IMG/VR virus record: IMGVR_UViG_3300014019_000001
Location: 32,001-96,000 of that record
Direction: 5' to 3' (one strand)
Length of the DNA stretch: 64,000 bases
Source of the DNA: a virus
Taxonomy: Duplodnaviria > Caudoviricetes
Positions 1,747 through 53,853 of this stretch are shown in pieces. Under the pieces are notes generated by a model, which saw only the letters and a list, made by a program, of their open reading frames with translations, ran no database searches and was not told where the DNA came from. A program made the translations under genes and the position numbers. Position 1 is the stretch's first letter; each line of letters starts with the position of its first letter.

Positions 1747-1959
1747 TCACTTCCGGCCATTAACTTCCCTCCACCACTTCAGGGTTTTGTCACAGTGATT
1801 GAGATCCACGGTGTCGAGGATCTGGCAGAGCACGCAGCCCCACCTCTTCCGATCGTCGCGTGCGCGAGCGGCTCGATAGGACAGCGTTTCGGTGGGCGCG
1901 CCGCCGAGCAGCGCATTCACCAGGATTGAAACCGCTACGGCGATCGAGCGGACGGACAT
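1747..1959 (-). CDS. Small phage protein (TLSYRA...CxxL...HC motif)
   Basis: ORF track 1747..1995; start trimmed to MSVRS. Confidence 0.55.
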   Translation of the reverse strand: MSVRSIAVAVSILVNALLGGAPTETLSYRAARARDDRKRWGCVLCQILDTVDLNHCDKTLKWWREVNGRK

Positions 1960-2037
1960 GCGCCCTACCCCGCCAGGACCGGCGCGACGGCGCATCCACT
2001 CAGAAAGAGCGAAATAGCGAAAACGGCAAAGCGCGAT

Positions 2038-2364
2038 TTAGCCATTTCCGACCCGTCGACCGGTGTTGTATTCGACCTGAACGGCGCGATCGTCCCAGAA
2101 CTCGATGAGACCGAGATCCTTGACGCAGGTGATCGGAAGGGTCCGGCCAAACTGCATCATGCAGAACACGTTGATCGCCGGCGCGTAGTTCTCGTTGGTC
2201 GAGGCGCGCGCCGTGAAGATGCGCACGTCCTTGCCTTCGTCGAGCCACTGGCGCACTCGGCCGACCATCGCGGGAATGGGAGCGCCGACGTGATCGATGC
2301 CGCGCCAGTGGTCGTATTCCGCCAGCGTGCCGTCGAGATCGACGCCGATCCAGCCCTTAGCCAT
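2038..2364 (-). CDS. HAD-superfamily phosphatase (PNK 3'-phosphatase-like)
   Basis: IGVDLDGTLA motif I, FTAR motif II, K...FWDDR motifs III/IV. Confidence 0.8.
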   Translation of the reverse strand: MAKGWIGVDLDGTLAEYDHWRGIDHVGAPIPAMVGRVRQWLDEGKDVRIFTARASTNENYAPAINVFCMMQFGRTLPITCVKDLGLIEFWDDRAVQVEYNTGRRVGNG

Positions 2365-2653
2365 CGACGATCTCCCAATCCTCTGCGAGGATATCGGTCT
2401 GCGAGGCGAGCCAGCCGGTCACGGTCGAGCCGTCAGCAGCACGCAGATTGAGGTTGGGCATACGAACCGACGTGCCGCGATCGCCTTCCTCGAAGAGGGA
2501 GTTGCGCACGCCGCCGGTGAGCAGCGCATTCGTGGTGAGCGGCGGCCGGGAACCCTTGTTGAGGAAGACGAACATCCCCTTTCCGTTCCAGCCGTCACGG
2601 GCGACACGCCCGCCGCCCGACTTCAGGTGTTCGATTGCAGCTCCGAAATTCAT
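2357..2653 (-). CDS. DUF2829 protein, Tad2-like anti-defence sponge
   Basis: MNFGAAIEHLKSG..VARDGWNGKGMF ... WLASQTDILAEDW, the signature of DUF2829. Confidence 0.8.
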   Translation of the reverse strand: MNFGAAIEHLKSGGGRVARDGWNGKGMFVFLNKGSRPPLTTNALLTGGVRNSLFEEGDRGTSVRMPNLNLRAADGSTVTGWLASQTDILAEDWEIVDG

Positions 2654-3294
2654 GTCATTTCCTTCCGTTCGACTTCGACACGCTCGCGAAAACGCTTGGT
2701 GATCGTCAGATCAGGGCCAAGCTCCTCGCCGAGGTCCGTGTGGGTGGTTGCGACCATGAAGGTCTTGCCGAGACGTCGGGCGACCTTCTGGATGTTGAAC
2801 GCCACGATCTTTGCCGTGACGCGATCAAGGACGGCGCCGAACTCGTCTGCGATCCAGACGTCGGCGTCCTGCTCCATGATTTTTGCGAGCTTCAGTCGGT
2901 AGCGCTGGCCGTCCGACAACTCCGATGGTTTGCGAATGTAGATCCAGGCGTCGGAGATGCCGGCTTTCGCGAGCAGATCGGTCGCTTCGACAGTGGTCTT
3001 GCCCACAAGGTCGATGACCGGGCGCTCTTCGAGCTGGATTTCACCGAGATCGGCGATCCTGAGCCCCTGCCCTGCCATCTGGGTCTTCAGATCGCGCAGC
3101 AGCAGCGACTTGCCGGAGCCCGACTGGCCGGTGATGTAGACGACATCGCCTTGGTTCACATCGATCTTCAGGTTGTCGTAGATGACGAACTTCTTGTCCG
3201 ACAGCGCCAGGCCAAAGCTCTCACCGATTTCGAGCACGCGGGACGTGCGCTCCACATTGCTCTCGAATGCGCGGGAGATCGTGTAGGTCGTCAT
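2650..3294 (-). CDS. Stand-alone ABC-type ATPase
   Basis: Walker A GQSGSGKS, signature LSDGQRYR, Walker B IADEF, H-loop ATTH; no permease nearby; start trimmed to MTTY. Confidence 0.9.
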   Translation of the reverse strand: MTTYTISRAFESNVERTSRVLEIGESFGLALSDKKFVIYDNLKIDVNQGDVVYITGQSGSGKSLLLRDLKTQMAGQGLRIADLGEIQLEERPVIDLVGKTTVEATDLLAKAGISDAWIYIRKPSELSDGQRYRLKLAKIMEQDADVWIADEFGAVLDRVTAKIVAFNIQKVARRLGKTFMVATTHTDLGEELGPDLTITKRFRERVEVERKEMT

Positions 3295-48095: not shown

Positions 48096-48716
48096 TCAGT
48101 TGAGGTGGATTGCGCTGCGGCGCTCCCTGTCGATGACGTCGAGGCGCTGCACGATGGTCTCGTGCAGGAAGTCCTTGCGAACGTCCCAATCCGTGTCGAA
48201 GATCAGGGCGGAATTGACCTGTTCCTTGAGCTCGGAGATACCGCCTTGCACGACGAGCGCGTGGTGCATCTGGTAGATGGGATTCTCCGACGGCTTGCCG
48301 TCCTCGACCACGTAATCCGGCAGAGGTGCCAGATAGAACACGAAGTCGTAGACGGAGCGCGTGGCTTCCAGGCACTTGTCGGCGAAGTTCGCCGCCTGGC
48401 GCAGGACCTCCAGATCAACGTTGTCGCCGTTCTTCATGGTGAACTCGCAAGCGAGATAGCCAAGGAAGTCGAGCGGCGTCCGGTCGCAGATCAGCGGCCG
48501 GCTGCGCTTGTCGAGCTCCTCCAGGTGGTTCTGGAGGAGCAGCGTCTGAAGGTGCAGACGATCCATGAGCGACAGGTCGCCCGTGGCATCGTAGCCGAAC
48601 GACTTGGCCGTCTTGGAGATCGAGGTCTCGTAAAAATCGATCCCGAGCTCCTCTGCGACGGCGCGCGCCAGTGTGGTCTTGCCGGAGCGGTGCGCTCCTG
48701 TCAGGCCAAACAACAT
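48096..48716 (-). CDS. P-loop nucleotide kinase (AAA_28-like)
   Basis: GAHRSGKTTL, ICDRTPLD. Confidence 0.75.
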   Translation of the reverse strand: MLFGLTGAHRSGKTTLARAVAEELGIDFYETSISKTAKSFGYDATGDLSLMDRLHLQTLLLQNHLEELDKRSRPLICDRTPLDFLGYLACEFTMKNGDNVDLEVLRQAANFADKCLEATRSVYDFVFYLAPLPDYVVEDGKPSENPIYQMHHALVVQGGISELKEQVNSALIFDTDWDVRKDFLHETIVQRLDVIDRERRSAIHLN

Positions 48717-49180
48717 CAGAGCCTTCCGGTGCTGCCAAAGCCGGCGGCACCACGGTCAGAAATGTCCAGCTCCTCGACCTCAGCGAACTGTGCGCGGAGA
48801 ACCGGCGCGATGACGAGCTGCCCGATGCGCTCACCCGGCGACATCTGATATGCCTTGTTCGACGTGTTGAGCAGGATCACCTTGATCTCGCCGCGATAGT
48901 CGCTGTCGACCGTGCCGGGCGTGTTGACGATGGTCAGGCCGTGCTTGGCGGCGAGACCAGAGCGAGGGCGCACCTGGAATTCAAAGCCGACGGGCAGCTC
49001 AACGGCAATTCCGGTCGAAATCATGCGCCGCTCGCCGGGTGCAAGCCACAGATCGTCGTTCTTGTCGAAGACGGCATAGACGTCGGCGCCGGCGGCCTCG
49101 GCGCTGCCATAGGTCGGAATGGTGGCGTCCTGACGCAGACGCTTGATCTTGACCGGCACGAGGGGAATGGATGCGCCCAT
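48716..49180 (-). CDS. dut: Trimeric dUTPase
   Basis: AAGAD, RPRSGLA, GTVDSDYRGEI, RGAAGFGSTG. Confidence 0.97.
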   Translation of the reverse strand: MGASIPLVPVKIKRLRQDATIPTYGSAEAAGADVYAVFDKNDDLWLAPGERRMISTGIAVELPVGFEFQVRPRSGLAAKHGLTIVNTPGTVDSDYRGEIKVILLNTSNKAYQMSPGERIGQLVIAPVLRAQFAEVEELDISDRGAAGFGSTGRL

Positions 49181-49670: not shown

Positions 49671-50678
49671 CTACTTCGAGACCGGGGCTTTGATCGCTGC
49701 GGCGGGGTGGTAATCGATCAACTCCACGTCATCGACGCCGACATCGAAGATGCTGCCGTCGTGATGGAGCATGACCTGCGGCAGCTCGACGGGCTGACGG
49801 GTGAGCTGCTCCTTCGCCTGCTCAACGTGGTTGGCGTAGAGGTGCAGGTCGCCGAAGGTGTGAACGAACTCGCCCGGCTCCAGACCGACCTCGTGTGCAA
49901 CCAGCATCGTCAGCAGCGCGTAGGACGCGATATTGAAGGGAACGCCGAGGAACCAATCAGCGCTGCGCTGATAGAGCTGGCAATTCAGCTTGCCGTTGGC
50001 GACGTGGAACTGGAACATGGTGTGACACGGCGGCAAGGCCATGCTGTCGACCTCGACCGGGTTCCAGGCGCTAACAATGTGCCTGCGGCCGTAGGGGTCT
50101 CTCTTGAGCCCTTCGATCACGTTCTTGAGCTGGTCGATGTGAACCGGAACGTGTTCCGAGGCGCCAGACGTGTTATCGTAGACGACCTTCTTCGCACCGA
50201 TCCAGTCGCGCCACTGCTTGCCGTAGACCGGGCCGAGATCGCCGTTCTCGTCAGCCCATTCGTCCCAGATCGAGACGTTGTGATCTTTCAGGAACTTGAT
50301 GTTGGTGTCGCCGCGCAGAAACCAGAGCAACTCGACCAGGATCGAGTGGAAGTGGACCTTCTTGGTCGTCAGCAGCGGGAAGCCTTCCGACAGATCGAAC
50401 CGGAGCTGCTCGCCGAAGAGACCGTAGGTGCCGCCGTTGCGGCCCTCGCGATAGACGCCCTTGTCGATCAGCTTGCGCAGGACGCGCAGATACTGGTGAT
50501 CGGCCATGTTGCCGATGAGACGCAGGTTCTGTTCGCTGTAGATATGGAGAGCGCCCCGGTCATCCTCAACCACGTAGCGCGTTTTGTTATCCAGCTTGTC
50601 GAAGACAGAAACGATCGTCCCGTCAAAGCTGTAATCGCCGGTGACTTTCGTCACAGCATCGAGATCCGAAAAGGGCAA
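49671..50678 (-). CDS. thyA: Thymidylate synthase with an N-terminal DfrB-like SH3 extension
   Basis: [38 protein letters not shown]. Confidence 0.95.
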
Positions 50679-50688
50679 AGTTGCCTCC

Positions 50689-51265
50689 TTACTTCTTGAG
50701 AATGTCGGCGGCGACTTCGAGCAGGATGTCCGGAAGCTCTTTCGTGCCGTCGTTGATTTTCGTGGTGAGTTGGCCGGAGAAGTCTTTCATCTCCGAGTAG
50801 GTGAGGCCCTGGATGAGCCCCGCCAGGTTCTTGAGTTTGGCGTTGGGATCCGCCTTTACCTTGTCGCCGAGCGTGAGGCGGCGCTCCTTGTCTGTGCGGA
50901 AGTCGTCAAACGCCACCAACAAGCTCCCGTGCCTTGCCGACAGCGATGGACGCGCGCTTTTCGAGGTCGCAGCCGCAGTAGCCGGTGTGCTCCGACTTCT
51001 CGATCAGCAGCGTGTCCTGCTCGTTGGAGATCCGGGCGAGTTCGCGCAGAAGGCAACGCGACTCGACGAGTTCCTTCTGGAGACGGGCGGCCGAACCGGC
51101 CTGGTTGCGATTGCGGCGCTCCAGATCAGCGATTTCACGCTGAAGGGCGATGATGGTGTCCTTGTCGGCCGGGCTATCTTCGGCCTCCTCGGCAGCGCCG
51201 AAGAAATTGCACATGTTGACCTGGTGAACGATGCTGACCTGCGGCCGGCGAAGGAAGTTGAACAT
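50689..51265 (-). other. Two hypothetical ORFs (50689..50922, 50906..51265)
   Basis: Follow the promoter/operator at 51284-51322. Confidence 0.5.
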
Positions 51266-51340: not shown

Positions 51341-51565
51341 TCAGAGACTGTCGAGATAAGCCTTGAGCTTGTCGGACCCGCCGACGTGCACGTCGCCATG
51401 GAAGATCTGCGGAACAGTCGAGTGGCCGGCGGCGCGGAAGCGCTGGAACTGCAGGTCAGTCACCAGCACCTCCTCCTCGAAATCGATGCCGCGAACCGCC
51501 AGCAAAGCCTTCGCGCGGCTGCAATAGACGCAGGTCGGCGTGGAAATCACTCGCCACTTTGCCAT
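51341..51565 (-). CDS. Glutaredoxin
   Basis: CVYC, TVPQIF, VGG; adjacent to the RNR. Confidence 0.92.
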   Translation of the reverse strand: MAKWRVISTPTCVYCSRAKALLAVRGIDFEEEVLVTDLQFQRFRAAGHSTVPQIFHGDVHVGGSDKLKAYLDSL

Positions 51566-53853
51566 TACGCCGCCTCCTTTCGATCTTCCGAGAAGTCGAT
51601 CGGGCACGCGCCGGCGCCGCAGTCCACATGCTCGAAGCCGATGTCCTCCTTGACGTCATCACCCTGGATGGCGGCGGCGATCAGTTCGAACTGCTGCTTC
51701 GTGACGGGCTGTTCCGGCTGATACTCGTAGGCCGAGGTATCGGTCTGGGGCATGACCGAGCAGCAGCGGATGGAGAACTGGCCGTCGATCAGCGTGTGCA
51801 GGAAGTGCTCGAAATCAACCTTCTTCGGGTCATACTTGAGCGTATAGCTGACCTGATTGCCGGTCTCATGGGCGAGGGACTCGCCGTTGGCATCGACACC
51901 GTGGATCCAGTATTTCTCCAGCAGGCGCAGGAATTCATACTGTTCCTCGGGCGTTGCCTCGGCGGCCGTGACCACCCATTCGCCGCCATCGAGCTCGCAG
52001 ATGCGCGGCTTCGTCGGGAAGCCAACGACGGTGGTGCCCTCGTAGGTCTTCAGACGCTTCACCGGATAGCCCATGGCCTCGTAGTCAGCGACGAGCGGAT
52101 CGTCATTGCGGAACTGCACCCAGCGGATGAACTCGCGCATGGACGGCAGGTGCGCGCCTTCGGTCAGACCGAAGAGCTTCGATGTGGTGCCGGCCGGCTT
52201 GAAGGTCGTGTTGGTGTGCGGGACGACGACGCCCAACTCCTTCGCGAACTTCTCAGCCTCGTCATCGATCGCCCGCTTGAACCGGGAGAGCGTGAGCCAC
52301 ATTTCCTTGGACTTCTGCTCGTTCACGATATCGTGCCAGGTGAACTTGAAGCGGTCGTAGGCCCATTCGTGGAAGCCGGTGATGCCGACGCCGATACGAT
52401 TGGTCCGGTTGACCTCGCGCCGGTAGAGGCAGTCCATCGTGTTCACGCGGATCAGAGCGCGCACAGCCGCCCGGAACGCATCCTCGGCGTCATCGTCGTT
52501 CTGCGCGTGGAAGGGCACCACGTCAGCGATCACGCAATAGGCGCCGAGCATCAGCAGGGTGATCTCGCCGCACGGATTGGTGATCATGGTGTATTTCACG
52601 TCCATGACGACCTTCGCCAGCGCCGACATCAGCGGGATCGTGTCCGCATCAACCTGGAAGCGGCTGGAGCCTGCATAGAGACCGTCAACGTAGGATTCGA
52701 TGCCCTCGTTGTTCTGCGTGAGCTTGTCCTGGTTGATGATGCCGGGCTCGCCGGTGCCATCGAAATAGGATGCCTTCGCCAGCTCGATCAGCACGCGCCA
52801 GGCGTGGGCTTCCGTGACGGTGATCGCGCCGACGCCGAGAAGGAAGATGAGGCGCGGGACGGACGTGCCGAGATCGGCATCACCAAGCTGATTGCGAACC
52901 TTGGCGCAGGCGGCGCGGAACTCGTCATCGATCGTGACCGAGTTGTTGGACGACCACAGGAACCCACCCCGCTTGAGCTGGATGAAGTCGAAGATGGTCG
53001 CGTCCTTCCAGTGCTTCGTCGCCATCCGGGCAGCGCGGCGCGCACCGCCGACGAGAACGCACTCGGCAGCATAGTGGTCGGCATACATGGCGGCGCGCCA
53101 GGGGGCCATGCCGGCGTCGCGGAGGAGGGCGATGTTCGCGATTGCCGACATCAGCGGGCCGGGGCCGGACGCCGGCCGGTTCTGCATGCCCTTAATCGGA
53201 CTGCCGCGCTTTCGGACCTGGGTGAAGTCCAGAATCAGAACTTCGTCGCGCCGGTTCTCGAACGCCATGCGCTCGATGATTTCGACGGCCTTCGCCCAGC
53301 CTTCGCGGCTGTCCGGCACTTCGAACACGGTGATCTTGCGATCGGCATAGAGGTGCTCGGCGTCCCGGCGTGTCTTATAGCCGGAGATCACACCGCTCTG
53401 CACGTCGCCGTGCGACCAGTCGATCACCGGAACGACGATAGGCATATTGTTCAGATCCGCCTGGATCATCGCGTCATCATAGGCGCGGCCGACGCCGGAG
53501 CCATTGAGCAGCAGATAGAAGAGCAGGAACGTCGCGGCCGCCGTGGAGCAGTTCGTGAAGACCTCCTGATTGCGCTCCGGCTGCGTCTCGTCGCCGTGCT
53601 GAAGGTGCCGGCCGGACATGAGCAGCGAAGCCTGGCGCAGGTGGTGATTGAGGTTGGCGTATTCGCTCTGGGCGGCGTTCGCGCCGCGCGGGTCGAGCAG
53701 CGAGTTGCCAAGGGCCACGCGATGGGCGACCTCAGCCCAGGTCTCGACGCGCGTGCTGCCATCCGGATCGGTGATCTTGCGGTTGATGGTGCGATCGGCG
53801 ACGGCCTGGCCCATACCGGCGAAGTATTCCCTCGCAGGGGTGTGCGAACTCAT
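51565..53853 (-). CDS. nrdJ: Class II (B12-dependent) ribonucleotide reductase
   Basis: FTNC, TNPCGEI, KPAGTTSK, C-terminal CGAGACP; no beta subunit nearby. Confidence 0.88.
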   Translation of the reverse strand: MSSHTPAREYFAGMGQAVADRTINRKITDPDGSTRVETWAEVAHRVALGNSLLDPRGANAAQSEYANLNHHLRQASLLMSGRHLQHGDETQPERNQEVFTNCSTAAATFLLFYLLLNGSGVGRAYDDAMIQADLNNMPIVVPVIDWSHGDVQSGVISGYKTRRDAEHLYADRKITVFEVPDSREGWAKAVEIIERMAFENRRDEVLILDFTQVRKRGSPIKGMQNRPASGPGPLMSAIANIALLRDAGMAPWRAAMYADHYAAECVLVGGARRAARMATKHWKDATIFDFIQLKRGGFLWSSNNSVTIDDEFRAACAKVRNQLGDADLGTSVPRLIFLLGVGAITVTEAHAWRVLIELAKASYFDGTGEPGIINQDKLTQNNEGIESYVDGLYAGSSRFQVDADTIPLMSALAKVVMDVKYTMITNPCGEITLLMLGAYCVIADVVPFHAQNDDDAEDAFRAAVRALIRVNTMDCLYRREVNRTNRIGVGITGFHEWAYDRFKFTWHDIVNEQKSKEMWLTLSRFKRAIDDEAEKFAKELGVVVPHTNTTFKPAGTTSKLFGLTEGAHLPSMREFIRWVQFRNDDPLVADYEAMGYPVKRLKTYEGTTVVGFPTKPRICELDGGEWVVTAAEATPEEQYEFLRLLEKYWIHGVDANGESLAHETGNQVSYTLKYDPKKVDFEHFLHTLIDGQFSIRCCSVMPQTDTSAYEYQPEQPVTKQQFELIAAAIQGDDVKEDIGFEHVDCGAGACPIDFSEDRKEAA

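Follow-up and report, generated by a model that had tools for sequence, protein, structure and literature searches.

A DfrB (R67)-like SH3 domain fused to thymidylate synthase in a Rhizobium-type phage

We found that a thyA gene of a Rhizobium-type phage very probably encodes a working bifunctional DfrB-TS, with the activity assigned by analogy to a published relative. Residues 8 to 54 of its product form an SH3 barrel like that of DfrB (R67, the type II DHFR), of the branch called cluster II, and residues 58 to 335 are a normal ThyA. A DfrB-TS fusion has already been described and tested for activity (Lemay-St-Denis et al., Mol Biol Evol 2025;42:msaf215; PMC12486381), and thus the protein that we describe is one more example. 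The new contribution is modest: we place the fusion in complete, cultured RHEph10-like rhizobiophage genomes, where current annotation misses its reductase domain.

RESULTS

A thyA gene with an additional N-terminal piece

The window, by which we mean the whole 64,000-nucleotide stretch of DNA that was analyzed, comes from a virus record of 116,399 bases that is estimated to be 99% complete. Its thyA DNA is 81% identical to that of Rhizobium phage RHEph10. The gene and its main parts are as follows.

49671-50678, minus strand: complete DfrB-TS gene of 335 codons and a stop codon, starting at TTG (open reading frame list and translation).
50684-50690, minus strand: Shine-Dalgarno sequence AAGGAGG, with a 5-nt spacer to the TTG (read from the sequence).
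50676-50678, minus strand: TTG start codon of the DfrB-TS gene.
50511-50678, minus strand: N-terminal extension, residues 1 to 56, the interval marked by the first-pass annotation (translation).
49674-50507, minus strand: ThyA thymidylate synthase domain, residues 58 to 335 (Pfam PF00303, E of 1e-109; PHROG 160).
50025-50027, minus strand: catalytic Cys218 in the PPCH motif, which is invariant.

The first-pass annotation of this DNA had described an extension of about 56 amino acids at the N terminus of thyA, and our translation of that interval is identical to the peptide that it quoted. The Pfam Thymidylat_synt match spans residues 61 to 334, so residues 1 to 57 are an additional N-terminal piece. 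The same match covers positions 1 to 265 of the 266 in the PF00303 profile. Just upstream, the TAA stop codon of the preceding gene overlaps the AAGGAGG site.

A search restricted to residues 1 to 60 recovered 26 further ThyA proteins of 314 to 352 amino acids, with 65 to 98% identity. Among the fusion proteins, Cys218 and its flanking motifs are invariant, and mean pairwise identity is 74% for the domain and 80 to 81% for the TS part. The loop that follows the GKQWR motif (ThyA residues 158 to 180; window positions 50139-50207, minus strand) is highly variable in length among these proteins. In homolog P0024, an insert contains two CxxC pairs and resembles a small zinc ribbon.

The N-terminal domain is predicted to fold like R67 DHFR

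50517-50657, minus strand: DfrB-like SH3-type five-stranded barrel, residues 8 to 54 (AF2 pLDDT of 93.2 and Foldseek).

In the AlphaFold model of residues 1 to 58 (pLDDT, 93.2), the strands of the barrel are residues 8 to 11, 19 to 27, 33 to 38, 44 to 47, and 52 to 54. In the model of the full-length protein (pLDDT, 85.7), the barrel (residues 8 to 54) is followed directly, at residue 58, by the first TS helix. The barrel and ThyA are joined by Ile-Gly-Asn, so that a linker is all but missing.

We compared the model with known structures using Foldseek. As the first-pass annotation had recognized, the domain resembles R67: PDB ranks 1 to 7 were all R67 DHFR, with TM scores of 0.76 to 0.81, rmsd values of 1.8 to 1.9 Å, and 28 to 29% identity. 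The top match was the Q67H mutant 2p4t, which aligned with all 58 residues (TM, 0.81; rmsd, 1.9 Å; 29% identity). The matches that came after R67 were Tudor and chromo domains at 10 to 20% identity. In BFVD, which holds predicted structures of viral proteins, rank 3 was A0A6J5PTB3 (36% identity; TM, 0.87), which is an active, trimethoprim-resistant cluster II tetramer with the motif LHIF (PMC12486381).

Relatives of the domain link it to DfrB

The assignment of the domain to the DHFR_2 (R67) family was favored at low probability in profile-profile comparison and did not hold in the Pfam search. hmmscan gave no match of residues 1 to 58 to Pfam DHFR_2 (PF06442), a profile with a 25-bit cutoff. 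With the same residues, BLASTP against DfrB2 returned no alignment, phmmer against the PDB returned chance matches only, and PHROGs returned just weak families of unknown function. A Pfam CSD match to residues 1 to 58 was rejected as chance-level.

We also built our own DfrB HMM. It scored the window's domain at 2.7 bits, which is inside the range of shuffled decoys. Among members of the domain family, 45 of 176 scored at least 8 bits with this HMM, as did 0 of 1,760 shuffled decoys. PF06442 was the Pfam family most often matched by the relatives of the domain (4 of 49 at an E of ≤1). A profile of 49 relatives aligned by hhalign with DfrB2 of plasmid R388 (taken from L003:30918-31151) at an E of 3e-4 over 54 collinear columns with 30% identity and a probability of only 38%. 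Aligned with a set of 28 DfrB proteins, the same profile gave an E of 7e-4 over 56 columns and a probability of only 25%. When the domain-family profile was compared with PDB sequences, R67 was reached at an E of 0.6 only.

Because relatives match the DfrB HMM while the window's own copy falls among decoys, the link is an indirect one: judged from these comparisons, the relationship between the domain and DfrB is real but runs through relatives. The homology rests on the profile-profile comparison, on the fold, and on the relatives that link the domain to DfrB. The modeled structure is clearer evidence than sequence for likeness to R67.

When we searched the phage genome with PF06442, the DfrB-TS locus was not reported. 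The sole PF06442 match in the genome, at G000:C1:13278-13400 (positions 1501-1623 of locus L002; outside the window), scored 14 bits with an E of 0.004 and was judged spurious. It sits in a 1,700-amino-acid frame that resembles a tail or host-specificity protein.

The K32 equivalent is kept, the pore motif is LHIY, and an R67-like tetramer is predicted

50538-50549, minus strand: strand B4 pore motif LHIY, residues 44 to 47 (hhalign onto VQIY, residues 66 to 69 of R67).
50646-50648, minus strand: Lys11, equivalent of the ligand-binding K32 of R67 (hhalign).

The first-pass annotation had placed LHIY at the position of the active-site VQIY, and hhalign aligned the two motifs in this way. It also paired K11 with K32, F18 with W38, and G42 with G64. 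All 27 fusion proteins have K11. Their motif is LHIY in 22, LHVY in 4, and LHVF in 1. Several interface and pore residues of R67 are changed here: F replaces W38, V replaces W45, D replaces H62, and H replaces Q67. This natural His at the Q67 position explains why the engineered Q67H mutant 2p4t ranks first among the structural matches.

Modeled as a set of four, the domain is predicted to assemble into an R67-like tetramer. The four copies were predicted to bind with an ipSAE of 0.66, against 0.05 for the best control, a result that may mirror likeness to the R67 tetramer, which has already been solved, rather than provide independent evidence. Of the proteins solved as one-chain pairs, 20 of 30 attain the ipSAE mark that we used, compared with 1 of 23 of those solved as a single chain. 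Three runs shared 100% of contacts, with pLDDT values of at least 85. In the predicted assembly, one interface joins strand B2 to strand B2 (residues 21 to 30, 34 to 38, 44, and 46), and the other joins loop L1 (residues 15 to 18) to loop L3 (residues 41 to 44). The B2-B2 and L1-L3 interfaces are the layout defined as DfrB1-like by Lemay-St-Denis et al., who found that the R67-type tetramer layout goes along with catalysis (PMC12486381).

DfrB-TS lies in a nucleotide module of a phage that lacks FolA and ThyX

The neighbors of the DfrB-TS gene are as follows; all of them are on the same strand as DfrB-TS.

48096-48716, minus strand: P-loop NTPase (Pfam AAA_28; the RHEph10 counterpart is annotated as thymidylate kinase).
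48716-49180, minus strand: dUTPase, which supplies dUMP to ThyA (Pfam PF00692, E of 3e-27).
51341-51607, minus strand: glutaredoxin (Pfam PF00462, E of 4e-11).
51565-53853, minus strand: ribonucleotide reductase of the class II (B12-dependent) type (Pfam RNR-II_ins_dom and Ribonuc_red_lgC).

The first-pass annotation had seen no FolA gene in this cluster. We found that FolA (PF00186) has no match anywhere in the whole 116-kb phage genome (estimated to be 99% complete), and neither does ThyX (PF02511).

At the equivalent position in the module, the window has a single 762-amino-acid class II ribonucleotide reductase, and in RHEph10 the alpha and beta subunits of a class I enzyme are encoded there (L001 1948-4607). 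This looks like a swap of ribonucleotide reductase class between otherwise syntenic phages.

We propose the following mechanism. Four N-terminal barrels would assemble into an R67-like D2 tetramer, and its central pore, lined by LHIY and Lys11, would bind NADPH and dihydrofolate so that hydride passes directly between them. The ThyA dimers joined to the barrels would convert dUMP and methylene-THF to dTMP and dihydrofolate, and the reductase part would convert the dihydrofolate from ThyA to tetrahydrofolate. The outcome would be a trimethoprim-insensitive dTMP cycle of the phage's own that needs neither FolA nor ThyX. The fold, the key residues, and the predicted tetramer all support the bifunctional DHFR-TS built from the trimethoprim-insensitive fold that the first-pass annotation had suggested, an idea that, as noted above, was already in print.

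The barrel could instead be just an oligomerization or nucleotide-binding module that clusters ThyA dimers, with useful dihydrofolate reduction carried out by the FolA of the host. A Rhizobium host is expected to carry its own FolA, which counts in favor of this reading, as does the lack of a Pfam DHFR_2 match to the domain. Lemay-St-Denis et al. suggested binding or oligomerization as possible native roles of DfrB domains, with dihydrofolate reduction perhaps a side activity, and they reported that clusters III to V of DfrB homologs are noncatalytic (PMC12486381). However, the motif LHIY is identical to that of the assayed, active DfrB-TS and is close to the LHIF of the active A0A6J5PTB3, and the equivalent of K32 does not vary. 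In addition, the layout of the predicted tetramer is the one that accompanies catalysis, and the phage carries ThyA in a genome without FolA or ThyX. We consider a purely structural or binding role for the barrel unlikely and favor the bifunctional DfrB-TS.

The N-terminal extension is translated

If the extension were not translated, ThyA would start at the internal ATG (Met58), where the sequence reads MADHQ, and the upstream 170 nt would be a leader. The GenBank coding sequences in NC_034248 and MN988505 do begin at this ATG, and the upstream start codon is a TTG. This reading has almost nothing left to recommend it and is already refuted as an account of the sole product: it conflicts with selection on the extension, with the absence of Met58 from many fusion proteins, with the ribosome-binding signals, and with a confidently modeled fold (pLDDT, 93) that has protein relatives of its own. 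The evidence on each of these points is given below.

We calculated dN/dS over residues 9 to 57 against five related phage copies and obtained 0.07 to 0.09, with synonymous sites close to saturation. The extension is under strong purifying selection. A Met is present at position 58 in 12 of the 27 fusion proteins and absent from the other 15 (window's protein included in the count), and for this reason the internal ATG cannot be a general start. We saw no purine-rich site ahead of the internal ATG in the window sequence.

In contrast, a Shine-Dalgarno sequence followed by TTG or ATG is found at the place equivalent to the window's start in 5 of the 6 related loci examined (the window counted). 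AAGGA followed by TTG also lies ahead of the domain in phage loci L004, L007, and L008, and AAGGA followed by ATG does so in L010; L012 has a TTG without the AAGGA motif. In each of these five loci, this codon is the sole in-frame start ahead of the domain.

Both records that we inspected, those of RHEph10 and RHph_N1_10, place the start of ThyA at the internal ATG and leave an "intergenic" gap of about 190 bases before it. To judge from their tblastn matches, MN988506 and MN988543 probably have the start misplaced as well. In RHEph10 (NC_034248/JX483881; L001 5960-6148) and RHph_N1_10 (MN988505; L004 2977-3172), these roughly 190 unannotated bases encode the DfrB-like domain, and the real ThyA start in both records is the TTG after AAGGA. 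Because the coding sequence is begun at the internal ATG, neither database searches nor resistance-gene surveys can see the reductase domain.

Fused and standalone relatives occur in phages

By phmmer, the domain has 563 relatives at an E of ≤0.001 among 1.8 billion representative proteins. Most are standalone proteins of 57 to 140 amino acids, and they share a conserved core with the LHIY motif at its end. An earlier word-indexed search for standalone proteins of 31 to 102 amino acids had found none; the exhaustive phmmer search later gave the 563.

Besides the 26 other proteins described above, the DfrB-ThyA architecture is found at six phage loci in addition to the window (L001, L004, L007, L009, L010, and L012). 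Among deposited phage genomes, tblastn found the fused form in Rhizobium phages RHEph10, RHph_N1_10, N1_15, and N2_6, and standalone relatives occur in phages of Pelagibacter, Ruegeria, and Erythrobacter. IMG/VR holds more fused copies, on contigs of 30 to 116 kb. We found no fused copy in 185,579 species-representative bacterial and archaeal genomes searched with peptide patterns that included the near-invariant EDDRGALH. In Pelagibacter phage Kolga, a 150-amino-acid protein has the domain at its C terminus and ends 4 nt before thyA.

In a tree of the domain (48 columns), all 27 TS-fused copies fall on one side of a weakly supported branch (SH-aLRT, 78); the tree came from a quick search, and most of its forks are unresolved. 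Such a tree is compatible with a single fusion event and does not show one. We infer that the fusion arose by loss of the stop codon between neighboring dfrB-like and thyA genes.

Several relatives have other arrangements. Among longer relatives with other partners, Pfam gave only one weak match, to MazG in P0145. That P0145 joins the domain to a weakly MazG-like stretch agrees with the NTP pyrophosphohydrolase fusions in PMC12486381. P0029, P0030, and P0040 have two matched stretches each, which suggests tandem DfrB-like domains within one chain. In the giant proteins P0130 (5,306 amino acids) and P0152 (6,351 amino acids), residues 2 to 34 were matched in 22 and 7 stretches, respectively; these may be a repeated beta-hairpin akin to the N-terminal half of the barrel or a chance effect of composition. 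Finally, locus L011 (IMGVR_UViG_3300031825_000371) has the domain, with the motif LHIF, at about residues 397 to 441 of a 469-codon frame (positions 1813-3222) that has no TS motif.

DISCUSSION

The R67/DfrB fold has long been seen as an odd, "primitive" trimethoprim resistance enzyme of unknown origin. The protein described here provides independent confirmation of the 2025 claim that this fold naturally serves in the thymidylate cycle. The published DfrB-TS came without genomic context, and it now has a home in complete, cultured, and genetically tractable Rhizobium phages.

DfrB-TS may be an invention of phages and not of bacteria, a proposal for which we put the chances at about even. According to this proposal, a cluster II dfrB-like gene of an alphaproteobacterial phage stood before thyA, and the stop codon between the two was lost once, giving the RHEph10-like fusion. 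If this is correct, the catalytic branch of DfrB would natively serve to recycle folate for phage dTMP synthesis, and phages would be a natural reservoir of the trimethoprim-insensitive fold.

The closest known system is the published DfrB-TS (BBD027md-00173_03685), in which a cluster II DfrB domain is fused to ThyA (PMC12486381). That protein has the motif LHIY and 31% local identity to DfrB1. Both of its activities were measured; for dihydrofolate reduction, the KM(DHF) was 28 μM and the kcat was 2.3 per s, for a kcat/KM of about 0.08 per s per μM. It showed trimethoprim resistance and was found in tetramer and octamer states. It came from a short bit-GEM contig for which annotation failed, and its authors called the protein bacterial (PMC12486381). 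The window's protein is like it in having an N-terminal DfrB-type SH3 domain followed by ThyA, the motif LHIY in B4, a predicted tetramer, and membership in cluster II. The two are likened by the motif and by identity to DfrB1, which is 28 to 30% for the window's domain. They differ in setting: the published protein is on a short single-cell or metagenome contig without genomic context, whereas the window's is in the nucleotide module of a complete, 116-kb RHEph10-like genome.

The viral cluster II homologs are another close system. Viral cluster II genes have been found beside thyA, one of them just 5 bp away (PMC12486381). They share with the window the gene order of dfrB-like and then thyA, but there they are two genes and here they are one frame. 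A0A6J5PTB3 and gp36-gp35 of phage Kolga belong to the same domain family as the window's domain, with 36 to 69% identity by Foldseek, BFVD, and tblastn.

R67 (DfrB1) and DfrB2 themselves (PDB 1vie, 2rk1, and 2p4t; PF06442) have the same fold, with a TM of 0.81 and rmsd values of 1.8 to 1.9 Å. Like the window's domain, they have a Lys at the K32 position, Ile and Tyr in the motif, a Gly in front of the motif, and D2-type interfaces, which are predicted for the window's domain. In contrast, R67/DfrB is a 78-amino-acid standalone protein on integrons and plasmids, whereas the window's is a phage domain fused to ThyA; the R67 motif is VQIY and not LHIY, and the window's match falls under the Pfam threshold.

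The DHFR-TS of eukaryotes, including protozoa, carries out the same two consecutive reactions on one chain, also with the reductase at the N terminus. Its reductase has the unrelated, monomeric FolA fold, whereas that of the window's protein is of the DfrB type. Since the FolA-fold reductase is unrelated to DfrB, the DHFR-TS and DfrB-TS fusions are convergent.
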